Position numbers and translations under genes: made by a program. The notes beneath the pieces are model-generated. The model worked only from the letters and a program-made list of their open reading frames with translations, did not search any database and was not told the origin of the DNA. DNA of 63,455 nt from an uncultured Actinomycetes bacterium (GTDB taxonomy: Bacteria > Actinomycetota > Thermoleophilia > RBG-16-64-13), in assembly GCA_937148845.1 (NCBI GenBank), contig CAKZRW010000067.1, positions 1-63,455 of the forward strand, given 5' to 3'. Shown here in pieces: positions 1-6,887 of the stretch; position 1 is the stretch's first letter; each line of letters starts with the position of its first letter.

Positions 1-36
1 GCTGTTCCTTGTCAACAAGGTGTGAGGGCATTACAG

Positions 37-1413
37 CTAGCGCAAGAAAGGCGGTACTTCCAGCTCTTCTTCCGGCGGCTCCCCACTCCTGGTTCCAGAG
101 GCCCCAGCTGGCTCCACTCCCAACTCCTTGGTCGCTTCCCGAGCGGCCTCCCGCGAGAGCACAGGTCCCACGCTCGGGCGCACCGTGGGGGCCGAGCCAC
201 CGGTGGTCGAGGCCGGACCCGTGACCGACCCCAGGCTGATCACCGTGGCCTCGGTGCTCTGGGCAGGGCCGAAGCCAGCCTCTACCAGGCCTTCTTGCTC
301 GGTGGTGACCTCAAAACCGGTGGCCACCACCGTCACCCACAGGGTGTCTCCGAGCGACTCGTCTACTACCGCACCAAAGATGATGTTGGCCTCCGGGTCA
401 GCGGCGCTGTTGATGATCTCGGCAACCTCATTTACCTCGTAGAGGGAGAGATCAGGACCGCCGCTCACGTTGAGAAGGATGCCTCGCGCCCCCTGGATGG
501 TCGTCTCCAGCAGAGAAGAGTTGATGGCCATCTCGGCCGCCTTCTGGGCCCGCTGCTCGCCACGAGCCCGGCCGATGCCCATGTGGGCCGTCCCCGCGCC
601 GGTCATGATCGTCCGCACGTCGGCGAGATCGAGATTGATGAGCCCCGGGACCGTCACTAGGTCACAGATGCCCTGCACTCCTTGGCGAAGCACATCGTCA
701 GCCAGACGTAAGGCGTCGATCATGCGGGTGCTACGGTCAGCCACCTCAAGCAGCTTGTCATTGGGCACCACGATCACGGTGTCGGCCTTCTGTCGCAAAG
801 CCCGGATACCTTCCAGAGCCTGGAGTGTCCGTCGCTTACCTTCGAACGCGAAGGGTCGTGAGACCACCCCGATAGTCAGGGCTCCCACCGACTTGGCTAT
901 CTCCGCCACTACCGGCGCCGCCCCCGTTCCCGTGCCGCCACCCTCGCCGGCCGTGATGAACACCATGTCGCTGCCCTTGAGCATGCTCTTGATCTCGTCA
1001 TAGGCGGCTAGGGCCGCTTCGCGGCCGACCCTGGGATCCGAGCCACCCCCTAGACCCTTGGTCAACTCGCGACCGATGCGCAACTTGTGGTCGGCCTCGC
1101 ACATAGCCAGGGCCTGAGCATCGGTGTTGATGGCGATGAACTCGACCCCCTCTAACCCGGCTTCGAGCATGCGGTTGACTGCGTTGGTGCCCGCGCCTCC
1201 CACGCCCACCACCCGGATGACCGCCGGGAAACTGCGCGAGGGTTGGATGAGGGTCCGGCGAGCCACATCGGGAGCATCCGCGCCCACACTACCCCCCTGC
1301 TCGACCGGAGCCGCACTTCCTCCGCCCGGCCCAGCTTCGCCACTCTTGTCAGCAGCGGTGGCCCGGAAGAGGAAGCTGAGCCCGCTGTCTTTCAGGCTAG
1401 ATCTTTTTTCCAC
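37..1413 (-). CDS. ftsZ: Cell division protein FtsZ with ~60-aa N-terminal extension
   Basis: VVGVGGAGTNAVNRM, tubulin signature GGGTGTG, T7 loop INLDLADV, C-terminal core peptide LEVPPFLR; GTG start preceded by GAGAGG, overlapping the end of parA. Confidence 0.97.
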   Translation of the reverse strand: MEKRSSLKDSGLSFLFRATAADKSGEAGPGGGSAAPVEQGGSVGADAPDVARRTLIQPSRSFPAVIRVVGVGGAGTNAVNRMLEAGLEGVEFIAINTDAQALAMCEADHKLRIGRELTKGLGGGSDPRVGREAALAAYDEIKSMLKGSDMVFITAGEGGGTGTGAAPVVAEIAKSVGALTIGVVSRPFAFEGKRRTLQALEGIRALRQKADTVIVVPNDKLLEVADRSTRMIDALRLADDVLRQGVQGICDLVTVPGLINLDLADVRTIMTGAGTAHMGIGRARGEQRAQKAAEMAINSSLLETTIQGARGILLNVSGGPDLSLYEVNEVAEIINSAADPEANIIFGAVVDESLGDTLWVTVVATGFEVTTEQEGLVEAGFGPAQSTEATVISLGSVTGPASTTGGSAPTVRPSVGPVLSREAAREATKELGVEPAGASGTRSGEPPEEELEVPPFLR

Positions 1414-2155
1414 GGAGCACCTCTCTCGCCAGCTGCCGGTATGCCATCGCCGCCTGGCTGTCCGGCGCGTATTTCAGCACGGACTCCCCGCGCACAGGAG
1501 CCTCGGCGAACTTGATGGTCTTGCGGATTGGCGTCGAAAACACCAGATCTCCGAAGTTCTGTGTAAGCACCTCTACAGCCTCTCTCCCATGCACCGTACG
1601 AGAATCGTACATCGTCGGCAGGATTCCGGCGATGTGAACATTCGGGTTTAGGTTCTCTCGCACCAGTTCCAGCGTCTTCTCCAACTGCGCTAGACCCCGC
1701 AGGGAGAGGTACTCACATTGCACAGGCACGATGACCGCATCCGCTGCCGTGAGCGCGTTCACCGTCAGCAGACCCAGGGAGGGAGGCGTATCCACCACGA
1801 TGAGGTCATACCGGTCCAGCACTGGAAGCAGGGCTTTGCTCAGCACCCGCTCCCGGCCGATGAGGGAGCTGAGCGCGATCTCAGCCGCAGCTAGGTCGAT
1901 GCTCGCGACCGCCACATCTACCTCCCCCGGCAAGATGACGTCCTCGATGCTGACCCCCAGGACCATGACGTCGTACATGCTGGGACGGACCAGATCGGGG
2001 TTGAACCCGAAGCTCATGGTCAAGTTGCCTTGGGGATCCATATCCACAGCCAGGACACGATAGCCCATCTCGTGGAAGGCCACCCCCAGGTTGACAGTGG
2101 TAGTGGTCTTTGCCACTCCCCCTTTCTGATTCGCAAAGGTCAGGACTTTGGCCAA
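1397..2155 (-). CDS. ParA/Soj-family ATPase
   Basis: Deviant Walker A NQKGGVAKTT, VDMDPQGNLT, Walker B VVDTPPSLG, IVPVQCEY; AAGGAGAGG RBS before TTG start. Confidence 0.95.
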   Translation of the reverse strand: MAKVLTFANQKGGVAKTTTTVNLGVAFHEMGYRVLAVDMDPQGNLTMSFGFNPDLVRPSMYDVMVLGVSIEDVILPGEVDVAVASIDLAAAEIALSSLIGRERVLSKALLPVLDRYDLIVVDTPPSLGLLTVNALTAADAVIVPVQCEYLSLRGLAQLEKTLELVRENLNPNVHIAGILPTMYDSRTVHGREAVEVLTQNFGDLVFSTPIRKTIKFAEAPVRGESVLKYAPDSQAAMAYRQLAREVLRGKKI

Positions 2156-2309
2156 GACCTCTCCTTAGTATTAGCCCGGAACAGGTGGATCAAACTCGGT
2201 TACCTTTTCGTAGAACTGGCGGAAATTCCTTTGCGGGACCGTAAGCGTCCCCACCACTCCAGGTCAGCCCAGCGGCGACACGGTAGATACGGCGCCCAGC
2301 GAACACGCC

Positions 2310-3755
2310 TCAGCGGGTGGCGGTCTCCAGACCTCCCGGGCGGAAGCTGACATTGGTCGGCACTGGCGGTGAGTGCGACTCACTGAACTCCCGCAGTTCC
2401 TTGAGATAGTCGCGATTCTCGCGCACATGCTCCCAGGCCCGACTCATCAGGTATCCCTGGACCTGATGCTTGCGATAGCGGGGCGCCTTAGGTTTGAGCT
2501 CGAATATGCGCTTCGCGCCGTAGAATCGCTTATGGGCTTGTAGGATGGCTTCCTGCAATTCGTAAGGCGTCATCTGCTTAGGCCAGAACACTACGTGGTG
2601 GCCGTCATAGAGACTCCAGTTCTTGGTGAAGATGCGCCCCTCGGCCTCGAACTGGGCCGTCTGTCGGGTCCCGGGTAGCGGAGTGAGGGCCAGGAACTGC
2701 ACCGTATTGAGACCGTGCTCCAGCGCGAAATCGACGGTGCGGGAAAGCGATTCCAGAGTGTCGGAGTCGGCCCCGAAGACGAACATGCCGTGGGTCCTTA
2801 TCCCACGCTTCGCCAAAGCCTCCAACCCGCCCGCCATGTCATCCAGGCTGGATTCCTTGTGATACTCCTTGAGAGTGGCCGGGTTGACCGACTCCAATCC
2901 CAGGTAGACGATGCGACAACCGGCGTTCCATAAGAGGTCGAGCAGTTCTTGGTCGACCACCCCGTTCTTGCACACCGAGTCCACCCGGATCTGGGCGAAG
3001 AAAGAGGTGTCGAGTTTGGCCCGGATCATCTCCGCTAGCAGCTCCTTGCCCCGGCGCTTGCTGATGAAGAAGTTGTCGTCGTAGAAGAAGACCTTGTCGT
3101 GCTTCATGCGTTTGAGCTGTTTGACCACTTCCGCCGGGTCGGCCACCCGCACTCGGCGCCCGAACATGAGCACCACCGAGCAGAACTCGCACCCGTAGGG
3201 ACAGCCCCGCGAGGAAAGCATCGGAGTCGGGTATACCTTGTCGCCGTTGACCACCAGGCTCAGGTCGGGCCAGGGCAGCTCGGTGAGGGAGGCCAGCAGC
3301 GGTCGGTCGGGGTTGTTCACCACCGTACCGTCAGCAGCCCGATAGGTGAGACCTTTGATGCTCTCCAAGGAGCCGCGGCCCTGGAGATACTCGACCAACT
3401 CCACCAGGGTCTCTTCACCTTCACCCCGCACGACGTAATCGCAGAAATCCATGGCCTCCTCGGCGAGGAAGGTCACATGTGGCCCGCCCATGACCACAGG
3501 AATGCCGGCATCACGCACCCGCTGCGCGTAGCGATAGGCCCGGATGGCTGTGGAAGTGGTGGTGGAAATGCCGACCAGGTCGGCAGAGAGCACGTCGTCC
3601 CAATCCACGTCGCTCAGGCTTTCGGCGTAGATCCGGACCTCGTGTCCACGCTGGGCCATCATCGCCCCCAGCAGAGGTAGCCCGAGGCGTAACTGCCTTA
3701 CAAAACTGTACACATGAAAGCCGGGGGCGGCAGGTTCGATGAAGATTATGCGCAC
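2310..3755 (-). CDS. B12-binding domain radical SAM protein
   Basis: N-terminal cobalamin-binding segment (DLVGIS..., VVMGGPHVT, VVRGEGE) and SRGCPYGCEFC CxxxCxxC motif, GLES. Confidence 0.9.
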   Translation of the reverse strand: MRIIFIEPAAPGFHVYSFVRQLRLGLPLLGAMMAQRGHEVRIYAESLSDVDWDDVLSADLVGISTTTSTAIRAYRYAQRVRDAGIPVVMGGPHVTFLAEEAMDFCDYVVRGEGEETLVELVEYLQGRGSLESIKGLTYRAADGTVVNNPDRPLLASLTELPWPDLSLVVNGDKVYPTPMLSSRGCPYGCEFCSVVLMFGRRVRVADPAEVVKQLKRMKHDKVFFYDDNFFISKRRGKELLAEMIRAKLDTSFFAQIRVDSVCKNGVVDQELLDLLWNAGCRIVYLGLESVNPATLKEYHKESSLDDMAGGLEALAKRGIRTHGMFVFGADSDTLESLSRTVDFALEHGLNTVQFLALTPLPGTRQTAQFEAEGRIFTKNWSLYDGHHVVFWPKQMTPYELQEAILQAHKRFYGAKRIFELKPKAPRYRKHQVQGYLMSRAWEHVRENRDYLKELREFSESHSPPVPTNVSFRPGGLETATR

Positions 3756-3874
3756 TGTACACTCACCATTTGGCGTTCAACGACGCGACAGGTATGGTAG
3801 CACACGGCTTCCCACAGACGACCAGTCGTCAGGGCACCATCCAGCCATCTGGAGAGCACTCAGGTACCGCAAAA

Positions 3875-5368
3875 TCACCCCGCGGACGGACTTACCGGAC
3901 CTACACCTTGTTCCGTGGTCGCGATCCCCGGCGCCACCAGCGGCAACGTTATGCGGAACCGGGTCTCTGTCTCCGTGTCCAGCAGTTCCACCGTTCCGCC
4001 GAGGAGCCTGCATATCTCCTTGGTCAGTGCCAGACCTAGACCCAACCCCTCCACCTGTTTGCTGGCACTCCCCCGGTAGAACCGTTCGAACAGGCGGCCC
4101 CGCTCCGGCCAAGGCGGGGGTGGCCCCTGGTTCCAGACCTCTATGAAAATGCGCTCAGTCCGGGAGTAGGCTTCGATCCCCACGGGACCGTCCTTGCCCT
4201 GCGGACCATACTGGACCGCGTTGCGCAAGAGATTGGCCAGCGCCTGGCGCAGCATGTCGCCATCGGTCGTCACCTGCAACCCCTTGTCCACTTTCACCGT
4301 GACCCGCTCGGTCTCTGTCCAACCCGCCCGAACCAGGGCACCCACCTCCTCTCCGATCAAAGCGTCCAGAGCTACCGGCGCCAGGCGGGGTCGGAACTCC
4401 CGGGAGTCGTAACGGGACAGGGTCAGCAGAGCGTCGATAAGCCGTTGCAGGCGAAGAGACTCTTTGTTGATAGCCACGGCCGCCTTCTGCCTGAGTTCCT
4501 GATCACTCGCTGTACCATCCAGAAGAGCTTGGGAGAAGCCCTGGATGGAGGTCAGAGGCGTGCGCAGCTCATGAGCAGCGGTCGCCACAAAAGCGCGCAA
4601 AGAGTCCTGGCTGTGCTTGATCTCATTGCGACCATGTTCCAGACTGTCCGCGAGTTCCTGCAGCTCTCCCGGGTAGGTGCCTGTGATAGCCCGGTCATAA
4701 CGTCCCTGGGCCAGGTCATGGGCCGCAGCCGAGAGGCGCCGAAGAGGGCGAGCAAGCCAGGCGGCCAGCCCCCACCCCACTAGCGCAGCGACCGCGGCCG
4801 CTGCTGCGGCGGAGATGCCCAGGACCTTGAAAACGTCCGTCCTCAGACTAAGCGCCGCACTGCGAGGCAGGGTGACCACAGCCAGACCCACGCTCCCGTC
4901 CGGCATCCGTAGAGGTACCGAGGCGAAAATCACGGCCGTGGCCCTGCTCGCGCCTTCCAGTTCCGCGAGCAACCTTCCGCTGCCTGGACGTTCCCGCGCG
5001 GCCAGCTGCGCTATCTCTTTGAGCCTCTCCAGGGGCTCCTTGCGCACGGGTATGCGACCAGCCCCGGCCAATACCTCGTCTTCCCCGAAGAGGACGATGC
5101 CAGCACCACTGGGCAGGGCCTGCACACGGGCGCGAAGGAACATGGAAAGCATGTGCGACCGCATGCCGCCGCCGGTGAGAAGCTCAGGAACGTTCTCGAT
5201 CTGCTCGGCTGTGGCTACCGCCTCCTCAAGCAGAGCCGCTTCCTGCCGGTCGAGCACGTAGTCGCCCAAGAACAGGTAATAGACGGCGCCCACCACGCAC
5301 ACAGCGAAGAGAGCTACCCCAACCAGGGCCCCCATGAAACGGGGGCGGAGAGAGCGCCGGCCCTTCAT
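3875..5368 (-). CDS. Membrane sensor histidine kinase (2 TM, HAMP, HisKA, HATPase)
   Basis: H-box AHELRTPLT, N-box NLLRNAVQY, FERFYRG, GLGLGL; overlaps regulator stop (ATGA). Confidence 0.93.
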   Translation of the reverse strand: MKGRRSLRPRFMGALVGVALFAVCVVGAVYYLFLGDYVLDRQEAALLEEAVATAEQIENVPELLTGGGMRSHMLSMFLRARVQALPSGAGIVLFGEDEVLAGAGRIPVRKEPLERLKEIAQLAARERPGSGRLLAELEGASRATAVIFASVPLRMPDGSVGLAVVTLPRSAALSLRTDVFKVLGISAAAAAAVAALVGWGLAAWLARPLRRLSAAAHDLAQGRYDRAITGTYPGELQELADSLEHGRNEIKHSQDSLRAFVATAAHELRTPLTSIQGFSQALLDGTASDQELRQKAAVAINKESLRLQRLIDALLTLSRYDSREFRPRLAPVALDALIGEEVGALVRAGWTETERVTVKVDKGLQVTTDGDMLRQALANLLRNAVQYGPQGKDGPVGIEAYSRTERIFIEVWNQGPPPPWPERGRLFERFYRGSASKQVEGLGLGLALTKEICRLLGGTVELLDTETETRFRITLPLVAPGIATTEQGVGPVSPSAG

Positions 5369-6177
5369 CCGCCAGCTCCGCTCACGTCGTCGACCAAGAA
5401 CTCGCCGGGGGCCTGTTGGCCGTCGGTCGATAACTCGCTGTCGGCCCGTTCGTTGTCTAGCGATGGCTCTTCCGCTGGGGCCTCGTCGGGGTCTGCTCGG
5501 TAGCCCACTCCCCAGACGGTCTTGATGATCTTGCCCCAGCGTCCCAACTTCTTGCGCACTTGCCCGATGTGTACGTCCACCGTGCGGACGTCACCGTAGA
5601 GATTGTAGCCCCAGACTTGCTCCAGGAGTCGCTCGCGGGTGAGGGCGAGCCCCCGGTTGAGGAGAAGATAGTGAAGTAGGTCGAACTCTTTCGGCGTAAG
5701 ATCGACCATGACACCGTCCACCTTCACCGTACGTTCAGCCGGGCTCAGCACCACCTCTCCGAGGACCTGTGTATCGGACCCGGGGTCAAGCGCCCCGCTA
5801 CGACGAAGAACAGCGCGGATGCGCGCCAGGAGCTCGCCCGGGCTGAACGGTTTCACCACATAATCATCAGCTCCCAGTTCAAGGCCGAGTATCTTGTCGT
5901 TTTCGGCGTCGCGGGCAGTCAGAATGATGACCGGAACCTGGGAACCCTTCCGCAGTCTCCTCAGAACCTCGAAGCCCGACTCGTCAGGCAGCATGAGATC
6001 GAGCACGACAAGGGAAGGCGCGCTTTGCGCAATGACTAGCAGCGCCTCGCTTGCTGTCCCTGCGGACCGCGCAGCGTAGCCCTCGTGGGCTAGATAGAGC
6101 TCCAGGAGTTCCCGGATCGAGGAGTCGTCCTCGACCACCACGATAGTCTGTTTGGACGGATGCTGACGGGCAGGCAT
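5365..6177 (-). CDS. OmpR/PhoB-family response regulator
   Basis: VVEDD, LDLMLP, GADDYVVKPF, LTPKEFDLL, RTVDVHI, TVWGVGY; ATG at 6177 follows GAAGGGAAGG (preferred to track start 6279). Confidence 0.93.
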   Translation of the reverse strand: MPARQHPSKQTIVVVEDDSSIRELLELYLAHEGYAARSAGTASEALLVIAQSAPSLVVLDLMLPDESGFEVLRRLRKGSQVPVIILTARDAENDKILGLELGADDYVVKPFSPGELLARIRAVLRRSGALDPGSDTQVLGEVVLSPAERTVKVDGVMVDLTPKEFDLLHYLLLNRGLALTRERLLEQVWGYNLYGDVRTVDVHIGQVRKKLGRWGKIIKTVWGVGYRADPDEAPAEEPSLDNERADSELSTDGQQAPGEFLVDDVSGAGG

Positions 6178-6317
6178 GAAAGAGGCCTTCCCTTCGTCGC
6201 CGTTCCCACTGTCATCCCACGCCAGGATGACCAGGGGCGGGGCAGGCCGCGCCACCTGGCCGCGGCCCGCCCCGCCCACCGCTGCCTCTATCTTAGCCGC
6301 GGTGGTAGCTTAATGTT

Positions 6318-6887
6318 CTAGCCCGTTGTCGAGCCCGAGGGCACCTGCTCAAGGTACTTTTCTACCAAATCGCGCAGCTTCTTGAGTGTTTCAGTCAGAT
6401 CCTGCCGAGCCTTGGTCAGAGTCTCGCGTTGACTCTTGAGCTGCTCCAGCAATTGGTCCAGTTGGGCCTGGTCGGTCGGCGTCATCTTCTCCCGCAGCTG
6501 CTGCAAGAACGACTGCCAGTCATCGGCGCGTTTCTGCCACTGCTTCATTTGCTTCTGCCACTGTTCCGCGCGGTCTCGCCAACGTTCGGCGCGATCTTGC
6601 CAGCGACCGGTGCGGTCCATCCACCGGTCACACATGTCGCGCAGCCGTTCCTGGTCGCTCCACATCATCCCCCGTCCCCAGGCCGGCGGCCAAGCACCGG
6701 GCTGGGCCCCCCCTGGGTTGCCACTCCCCGCCCCGCCGCCAAGCAAAGCCATCTGCGGCGGGAGAAACGCCCAATCGTCAGAATCGGAGCCAGCCGTCGT
6801 GGCCGCCCAGGCTCCCGCGCCAGCCCCTATCACTACGACCGCCGCTATCAGTGCGACCAGCCATTTGCGTTTCCAGAGTGCTCTCAC
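6318..6887 (-). CDS. Exported/membrane-anchored coiled-coil protein, probable accessory partner of the two-component system
   Basis: Basic N-terminus plus hydrophobic stretch ending AWA; Trp-heptad and Gln/Leu coiled-coil; GGAGG RBS; first gene of the regulator-kinase run. Confidence 0.7.
   Translation of the reverse strand: MRALWKRKWLVALIAAVVVIGAGAGAWAATTAGSDSDDWAFLPPQMALLGGGAGSGNPGGAQPGAWPPAWGRGMMWSDQERLRDMCDRWMDRTGRWQDRAERWRDRAEQWQKQMKQWQKRADDWQSFLQQLREKMTPTDQAQLDQLLEQLKSQRETLTKARQDLTETLKKLRDLVEKYLEQVPSGSTTG

Follow-up and report, generated by a model that had tools for sequence, protein, structure and literature searches.

The locus analyzed here raises the question of why a gene for a ParA-type ATPase should run directly into a gene for the division protein FtsZ, with none of the familiar division or partition genes upstream of them. 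It lies at the beginning of a 63,455-nucleotide stretch of DNA (the window), positions 1 to 63,455 of contig CAKZRW010000067.1 (C67) in assembly GCA_937148845.1, from an uncultured soil actinomycete of the class Thermoleophilia; the assembly comprises 2.66 Mb in 124 contigs, has 62% GC, and is 96.9% complete. In the list of open reading frames (ORFs), parA2 (1397..2155, minus strand, 252 amino acids, TTG start) is followed on the same strand by ftsZ2 (37..1413, minus strand, 458 amino acids, GTG start), which encodes a second FtsZ paralog. The parA stop codon TAG occupies positions 1399-1397 and the ftsZ2 start codon GTG positions 1413-1411, and the resulting 17-nucleotide overlap (1397..1413, minus strand) is a predicted translational-coupling junction of the two genes. 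Shine-Dalgarno-like sequences were read directly 5′ of the parA TTG (AAGGAGAGG, AAGGAG-type, 2158..2166, minus strand) and, for ftsZ2, within parA itself (GAGAGAGGT, 1419..1427, minus strand). The original prediction for this DNA had described the overlap with its internal ribosome-binding site, the absence of ftsQ, ftsA, mur, and parB genes upstream, and a downstream context lost at the window edge, and all of these descriptions held: the coordinates agree, no mur, fts, or parB gene was found among the genes upstream of parA2 in the window, and window base 1 is base 1 of C67, with the contig edge 36 nucleotides past ftsZ2, so that the downstream side is missing. The results presented below indicate that parA2-ftsZ2 is a class-wide variant of ParA-based positioning systems, and no description of such a module was found in the literature searched, which covered few subscription journals and no supplements.

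It had also been proposed that this ftsZ lacks its division and cell wall (dcw) cluster neighbors, and here the explanation proved to be different. A tblastn search of the assembly detected two ftsZ genes, the second being a match on contig C25 that encodes 362 amino acids with 67% identity to FtsZ2 over the core. The C25 gene follows murE, murF, mraY, murD, ftsW, murG, murC, murB, and an ftsQ-like gene and precedes sepF- and divIVA-like genes (names assigned by reading ORF starts, without a family scan), and no ftsA was seen in this dcw stretch; from its gene content the cluster is of the actinobacterial dcw type. The parA-coupled ftsZ is thus a paralog and not the dcw division FtsZ, and relocation of a single ftsZ out of the dcw cluster was rejected, since the cluster on C25 has its own ftsZ. 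The ordinary partition genes are likewise found elsewhere: a second ParA, 40% identical to ParA2, is encoded on contig C47 directly 5′ of ParB as the Soj-ParB pair of the genome, and scpA is on contig C31, away from parA2-ftsZ2. No match to MinC (MinC_C) or MinE was detected in the source genome at its 96.9% completeness.

Surveys of related genomes showed that adjacency of parA and ftsZ is conserved throughout Thermoleophilia. Within the source family parA is followed by ftsZ2 with the same overlap in 22/22 loci; FtsZ matches occurred in 40/41 relatives searched, nearly all with two each; and ParA and FtsZ were adjacent on the same strand, by coordinates, in 16/16 genomes of the other six families of the class that were searched. 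Among 80 loci from named metagenome-assembled genomes that were found via ParA (Gaiellales, Solirubrobacterales, and Thermoleophilaceae), 76 had FtsZ directly after parA, and in the remaining four the sequence ends within about 400 nucleotides after parA. ParA of this type, at E ≤ 1e-90, was present in 242 of 251 Thermoleophilia genomes, representing 99/100 genera and all 12 families sampled; among published genomes from outside the class, the strongest match reached 2.4e-80. In a phylum sample of 301 genomes, two FtsZ matches were found in 23/23 genomes of the class and one in nearly all others. Five of the 11 listed two-FtsZ genomes from outside the class were examined, and in these the ftsZ copies are in tandem with no parA nearby (loci L111-L120; G269:C180, G226:C33, G276:C25, G083:C63, and G163:C1, in other Actinomycetota families). 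The tandem second copies form their own clade or clades, one of them very divergent with 48% identity to the query core, and this duplication is, from the FtsZ phylogeny, independent of the ParA-linked one.

The overlap recurs in all family loci, and throughout the class the two genes either overlap or directly abut, which argues against its being a product of chance. Flanking genes, by contrast, are kept only within families: in the source family the pair lies between an upstream radical SAM gene and, about 500 nucleotides downstream, a gene for a class IV aminotransferase, whereas Solirubrobacterales and Thermoleophilaceae have ArsA-like ATPases upstream on the opposite strand and a gamma-glutamyltranspeptidase downstream, so that the conserved unit appears to be the two genes alone. 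A ParB partner beside the pair was looked for, and no ParB relative was found in any of 102 parA-ftsZ2 loci. If a duplicated ftsZ had simply landed beside an orphan parA, with no meaning in their adjacency, it would be very hard to understand why overlap or adjacency was kept over 12 families and nearly every genus sampled while the flanking genes all changed, and why ParA2 and FtsZ2 each form one clade; we regard that explanation as extremely improbable. These patterns instead mark parA2-ftsZ2 as a self-contained module of two genes, apparently coupled in translation, that is a defining feature of Thermoleophilia. Of the dedicated ParA-FtsZ unit originally proposed, what stands is a coupled pair, conserved class-wide, with flanks that vary; what was missed is the paralogy of the ftsZ, the N-terminal peptide of its product, and the group to which the ParA belongs. 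A few loci have a different neighbor downstream, scpA being directly 3′ of ftsZ2 in 3/41 relatives that make up one whole family (G026, G031, and G036) and also in locus L042 (Pfam E 8e-21), and in those loci ftsZ2 holds the scpA-adjacent slot that is occupied elsewhere by a small ORF described below.

By domain content and motifs, FtsZ2 is a full FtsZ. Pfam assigned Tubulin PF00091 (E 6.6e-47, 160.7 bits with a cut-off of 33) to residues 66-225 and FtsZ_C PF12327 (E 3.4e-35, 120.7 bits with a cut-off of 27) to residues 274-368, and the NCBIfam ftsZ equivalog TIGR00065 scored 415.1 bits against a cut-off of 295.2. The original observation that GGGTGTG, the T7 loop, and the C-terminal peptide are retained was borne out by the translation: GGGTGTG lies in the GTPase domain (739..1218, minus strand), the T7 loop NLDLADV just ahead of the C-terminal domain (310..594, minus strand), and LEVPPFLR within the C-terminal peptide EELEVPPFLR (40..69, minus strand), which follows a disordered C-terminal linker (residues 369-447; 73..309, minus strand). 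In many relatives the tblastn matches of FtsZ2 end near residue 370, and the proteins themselves end in (D/E)L(E/D)(V/I)P(P/S)FL(R/K); in FtsZs that have been studied the conserved C-terminal tail binds membrane anchors. A quick tree built from 58 FtsZ cores placed the ParA-linked FtsZs in one clade (Shimodaira-Hasegawa-like approximate likelihood ratio test, SH-aLRT, 94), with branches longer than those of ordinary FtsZ. No position differed in a fixed manner between ParA-linked and ordinary FtsZ at ≥90% conservation in each set, and there is accordingly no sign of lost GTP binding or polymer interfaces; the core is apparently complete and polymerization-competent. The first glycine-rich loop of FtsZ2 (residues 73-77; 1183-1197, minus strand) reads GGAGT, and GGAG occurs in at least 60% of ParA-linked FtsZs where ordinary FtsZ of the phylum has GGGG, which some FtsZ2 proteins retain.

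What sets FtsZ2 apart is its N-terminus. Residues 1-20 (MEKRSSLKDSGLSFLFRATA; 1354..1413, minus strand; alignment A1) form a conserved peptide with the class consensus MAxKRASMREGPLAxLFRxTE and the source-family form MEKRSS(M/L)KDSGLSxLFRATE. Among 88 aligned sequences M1, S6, L15, and F16 were invariant and R4, M7, L12, and T19 were present in at least 90%, and in every lineage the peptide begins at, or overlapping, the parA stop. A strict peptide pattern matched 90 of the 98 loci in which both genes are present; among the eight misses, five show a recognizable variant of the peptide, and in three the assembled sequence seems to contain a frameshift. A 22-column hidden Markov model (HMM) of the peptide, searched against 38,437 six-frame ORFs of the source genome, had FtsZ2 as its sole significant match (E 1e-8). 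The peptide is followed by a low-complexity linker (residues 21-65; 1219..1353, minus strand) that varies in length and sequence among relatives and is Pro/Glu/Ala-rich and about 40 to 170 residues long across the class, so the protein is laid out class-wide as peptide, variable linker, FtsZ core, variable C-terminal linker, and C-terminal peptide. Some linkers carry second motifs, HPRE(S/T)GLPHPAL and ERLRHAFSSEIPENVMD in those of Solirubrobacterales type (L040, L048, L053-L060, and others) and TVEHVPDF and PEPAPRLHR(V/A)P in those of Gaiellaceae type (L036, L052, L062, and others), and these lineage-specific motifs are candidates for additional binding sites.

Partners of ParA-type ATPases as a rule carry a flexible N-terminal tail through which the ATPase is activated, and such tails of ParB, ParG, PomX, McdB, and MinE stimulate their respective ATPases. 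In its sequence FtsZ2 has what distinguishes a tail-bearing ParA partner, namely a basic N-terminal peptide, a flexible linker, and a gene beside that of the ATPase, and the peptide is most likely the contact with ParA, a proposed docking and ATPase-activating tail. When a ParA2 dimer was co-folded with ATP and the FtsZ2 segment 1-45 on the basis of alignments A2 and A1, the scores were 0.12 and 0.02, where the mark is 0.32; run without controls, this outcome counts neither for nor against binding of the tail to ParA2.

ParA2 has the deviant Walker A sequence NQKGGVAKTT, of the KGGxxK(S/T) type, and matches the Pfam families AAA_31 (E 1.6e-56), CbiA, and MipZ (E 1.4e-11), with no NCBIfam model above its own cut-off. 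A MinD-like identity was rejected on the basis of model scores (51 bits for TIGR01968 against a cut-off of 213, with all MinD models of NCBIfam far below their cut-offs), the failure to detect MinC or MinE in the 96.9% complete genome, and the absence of a C-terminal extension, no C-terminal membrane helix being seen beyond the ending AREVLRGKKI; a MipZ-like identity was rejected as well, with no ParB in the 102 loci. The nearest solved structures are 4pfs and 5if9, named 'cobyrinic acid a,c-diamide synthase' (E ~1e-59), and ParA 8ray and Thermus Soj (1wcv, 2bek, and 6iub) rank below them. In the source family ParA2 starts directly at the P-loop strand; in other orders (L036:3779-4771, L091:3929-4771, and L065:3890-4750) the ParA frame extends 20-75 residues upstream and begins MGL(S/M/F)(R/D)(L/R), these extensions being open frames with putative starts.

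A careful maximum-likelihood tree of 64 ParAs separated a Soj group, with ParB following (support 99/90), from a set of three others: a scpA-side group whose parA genes precede the small ORF (99/97), a third actinobacterial group with a small zinc-ribbon-like ORF after parA (100/100), and the FtsZ2-linked group (100/99). These three jointly split from Soj with support 99/90. The scpA-side group presumably includes Cg1610 and Rv1708, judging from their gene order. Since each Thermoleophilia genome has only two strong ParA matches, Soj and ParA2, the latter appears to be the sole member there of the non-Soj set, and its position in the tree relates it to the PldP/ParA2 group, with no claim to strict orthology. 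The best ParA2 matches outside Thermoleophilia have 48-56% identity. Loci with third-group ParAs are L152, L153, L155, L157, L159, and L167 (ParA near bases 1460-2270); in L152, L153, and L159 the small ORF after parA has two CxxC pairs and, near its start, a short shared ALYS(T/A) motif that makes it a possible further tail-bearing partner, and no such ORF was seen at L155, L157, or L167.

The group to which ParA2 is related has a literature of its own. All actinobacteria are reported to have a second parA-like gene, SCO1772 or 'parA2', which corresponds to PldP in Corynebacterium glutamicum (PMC4255298). PldP (Cg1610) is homologous to Rv1708 and is described as having no partner ParB, and cells deleted for it vary in length and form minicells, with PldP foci at the division site (PMC3989709). 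Rv1708 and MSMEG_3743 have been characterized as MinD-like (PMC10482377), and a 2025 text still presented PldP as an orphan of 'enigmatic' function (bioRxiv 10.1101/2025.07.02.662783). ParA2 resembles PldP, Rv1708, and SCO1772 as a short ParA with a deviant Walker A motif and no ParB, in the same wider non-Soj group, and a parA-X-scpA order is seen in some Thermoleophilia, the source genome not among them; PldP is moreover linked to division by its minicells and septal foci (PMC3989709). The two differ in that ParA2 is always coupled to a second FtsZ, whereas PldP is described as partnerless (bioRxiv 10.1101/2025.07.02.662783).

A candidate for the missing partner was found beside the PldP-like genes themselves. 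A small ORF of 114-192 amino acids stands at or just after the parA stop in 13/13 scpA-side PldP-like loci from published genomes, overlapping the stop by about 16-32 nucleotides in most of them and following a short gap in L130; a scpA-like gene comes after it in five of the 13, and in one further locus of the scpA-side clade scpA directly follows parA. Three like loci from unpublished genomes (G041, G057, and G085) were excluded from these counts and from the trees. Small ORFs were placed at L130:2331-2672, L131:1149-1499, L132:2258-2782, L133:2255-2611, L134:2252-2608, L137:2255-2665, L138:920-1495, L139:2256-2750, L140:2256-2828, and L141:1098-1487. They begin MxRRASLPGADELFRxT, with the variant GRASLPGADELFR in one family, and in alignment A3 the tail and the C-terminal domain are conserved while the linker between them varies. 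Neither Pfam (7 ORFs searched) nor NCBIfam (4 ORFs) assigned them to any family. An AlphaFold model had a mean predicted local distance difference test (pLDDT) value of 77, with 87-98 over residues 50-114, and in a full structural scan almost all of its top matches were ribbon-helix-helix domains, including the TraM N-domain (Z 6.2), the PutA ribbon-helix-helix (Z 5.2), the CopA and ParD antitoxins, the centromere-binding ParB of pCXC100 (Z 4.8), omega (Z 4.3), ParG (Z 3.6), and McdB (Z 3.6), values that are low by the guidance of the tool; assignment of the C-terminal domain to the ribbon-helix-helix fold is thus tentative.

The small-ORF tail and the FtsZ2 tail have in common (K/R)R(A/S)S(L/M), 5-7 intervening residues, and LFRxT. 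When the FtsZ2-tail HMM was run against 2653 six-frame ORFs from 42 loci, 11 of the 13 small ORFs fell within the top 30, a rank enrichment with a hypergeometric p of about 4e-21 that is overstated since the loci are related. Given that the small ORFs beside related ParAs carry a like tail, FtsZ2 resembles a partner of ParA in which FtsZ has taken the place of the DNA-binding domain, and the small ORF may be the missing partner of PldP-like ParAs. The same comparison bears on whether the peptide contacts ParA at all, for it could instead bind the membrane, serve in regulation (as a phosphorylated RRxS-like site would), or be a handle for another protein, with coupling serving co-expression and ParA2 acting indirectly or on the FtsZ core. 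The invariant serine in a basic context (K/R-R-A/S-S) would suit such a tag, likeness of the peptide to the ParB tip of this genome is not statistically detectable, and MipZ and MinC/MinD do act on the FtsZ core. Against this, a like peptide is N-terminal on a quite different, small ribbon-helix-helix-like protein located precisely after a related ParA, so that what the tail-bearing proteins share is the ParA neighbor and not the rest of the protein, and N-terminal activating tails are usual in ParA-type partners. We therefore consider a tag of another kind quite unlikely and think it reasonably probable that FtsZ2 would be the direct partner of ParA2 via its tail.

A mechanism may be proposed along these lines. 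ATP-bound ParA2 dimers would sit on a surface, the nucleoid being the likeliest; FtsZ2 would dock on ATP-bound ParA2 by its N-terminal tail and stimulate ATP hydrolysis; FtsZ2 assemblies would thereby be moved or held relative to the chromosome; and the FtsZ2 core with its C-terminal peptide would seed, join, or restrain the Z ring of the ordinary dcw FtsZ. ParA2-FtsZ2 would in this way help in the choice of division site, because MinC and MinE were not found. As to origin, the tail and linker of a small ribbon-helix-helix partner would have been joined to a duplicated ftsZ. Taken as a whole, this proposal, in which an FtsZ polymer would be both cargo and activator of a ParA, the tail of a small partner moved onto a duplicated FtsZ would allow direct positioning of the Z ring, and the PldP-type 'orphans' would have an overlooked ribbon-helix-helix partner, is held tentatively, at a little under an even chance.

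Several points weigh against the proposal, in which a division-positioning role, ParA2-FtsZ2 binding with stimulation of the ATPase, and nucleoid binding by ParA2 are all inferred. Likeness of the FtsZ2 and small-ORF tails is short, and single HMM scores between them are not significant (E 0.2-20); when 5 other Actinomycetota genomes were searched with a 45-position tail profile, the small ORFs were not among the matches. The N-terminus of the genome's own ParB (MAKRPALGRGLAALLGE) is similar by eye and was absent from the peptide-HMM matches, and the ParB-like tip of FtsZ2 is a resemblance by eye and not detectable homology. Foldseek of the small-ORF model against PDB gave no match at E ≤ 0.001, and the structural Z values were at most 6.2. 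Finally, the FtsZ2-linked ParA joins the third group (98/93) and not the scpA-linked, PldP-like clade, which is a further difference from PldP; constraining it with the scpA-side group was worse by 8.4 log-likelihood units with p = 0.050 in the approximately unbiased (AU) test, a borderline result for an alternative grouping that was named only after the tree was seen. The stems of both groups are long, so mutual attraction is possible.

Another reading concerns what the module would do. ParA2-FtsZ2 could be a separate cytoskeletal system for positioning or segregation that does not place the ring; its FtsZ2 filaments would instead move or anchor, for example, the chromosome or condensin region, the nucleoid, or a structure at the cell pole, with ParA2 as their regulator. 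The module probably arose at a parA-(partner)-scpA-scpB locus, which is concerned with chromosome organization; the partner domain that was replaced resembles a DNA-binding ribbon-helix-helix; FtsZ2 evolves faster than ordinary FtsZ, as its longer branches indicate; and the dcw ftsZ, with sepF and divIVA intact, could suffice for division. Yet FtsZ2 retains the peptide that binds membrane anchors, its strongly conserved positions show no fixed difference from division FtsZ, as would fit mixing into the Z ring, and a division phenotype and septal localization are described for the related PldP (PMC3989709). A separate cytoskeleton seems to us fairly unlikely on balance.

Comparison with known systems helps to define what would be new in the Thermoleophilia pair. 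In the PomXYZ system of Myxococcus xanthus, the ParA-like PomZ positions a cargo that marks or stimulates formation of the Z ring, and PomX has a short basic N-terminal activating peptide. The Thermoleophilia pair is similar in having a ParA-type ATPase and a partner with a short basic N-terminal peptide, and differs in that the PomX/PomY scaffold recruits FtsZ, whereas here the tail sits on FtsZ itself; no PomX or PomY relatives were seen, no dedicated search having been made. Type Ib partition pairs (ParF/ParG of TP228, ParA/ParB of pCXC100, and delta/omega) resemble the PldP-like loci in that the small ORF has a tail, a linker, and a ribbon-helix-helix-like domain, a comparison that rests on weak structural matches (Z 3.6-6.2), and the FtsZ2 tail resembles the small-ORF tail; here, however, the ParA2 partner in the window is a whole FtsZ without a ribbon-helix-helix domain, and the module is chromosomal and class-wide. 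MinD/MinC/MinE and MipZ/ParB likewise tie a ParA-family ATPase to FtsZ, and the Pfam MipZ model matches ParA2, but the Thermoleophilia locus has no adjacent ParB, the source genome has no detected MinC or MinE, and ParA2 has no C-terminal helix.

A second FtsZ is itself not without precedent. FtsZ duplications are reported to have arisen in at least five independent events, mostly as truncated copies, and the duplications in Hyphomicrobiales (FtsZ1/FtsZ3) and in Bradyrhizobium provide a second FtsZ besides the dcw copy (bioRxiv 10.1101/2025.09.29.679267). The tandem actinobacterial ftsZ genes are a further case in which a second FtsZ is kept, differing from FtsZ2 in forming separate clades in the FtsZ tree. 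Most other FtsZ duplicates are truncated or in tandem, and in the sources cited neither a ParA partner nor a conserved N-terminal tail is described for any of them.

On the same strand 5′ of parA2 in the window, Pfam and ORF reading identified a B12-binding radical SAM enzyme (2310-3755, minus strand), located 155 nucleotides from parA2 in a position that is kept family-wide and not in other orders, and a histidine kinase and response regulator pair (3875-6279). Adjoining the latter is a 189-amino-acid ORF (6318-6887, minus strand) that has a hydrophobic segment at its N-terminus and repeats rich in Trp, Gln, and Arg (RWQDRAERWRDRAEQWQKQMKQWQKRADDWQ). A consensus scan of window positions 1-4000 gave no promoters or terminators and is uninformative at 62% GC. 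Of sequencing runs, RNA included, none was listed as containing window positions 1-3800.

The significance of the module lies in the problem of division-site selection in this phylum. Actinobacteria are described as having neither Min nor Noc and their choice of division site as unsolved, and the one candidate ATPase, PldP/Rv1708, as having no known partner (PMC3989709; bioRxiv 10.1101/2025.07.02.662783). In Thermoleophilia an ATPase related to PldP is hard-wired, class-wide, to a copy of FtsZ, which points to a direct physical link between ParA and FtsZ, and the module thus bears on the unsolved partner and function of the PldP-type ParAs. If the proposal is true, the PldP-type ParAs in most other Actinomycetota would be 'orphans' in name only. 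It would also make parA2-ftsZ2 the first ParA system with a tubulin-family filament as cargo, no earlier case being known to us or found in the literature searched, and a clear case of domain swapping behind a conserved ATPase-activating tail.

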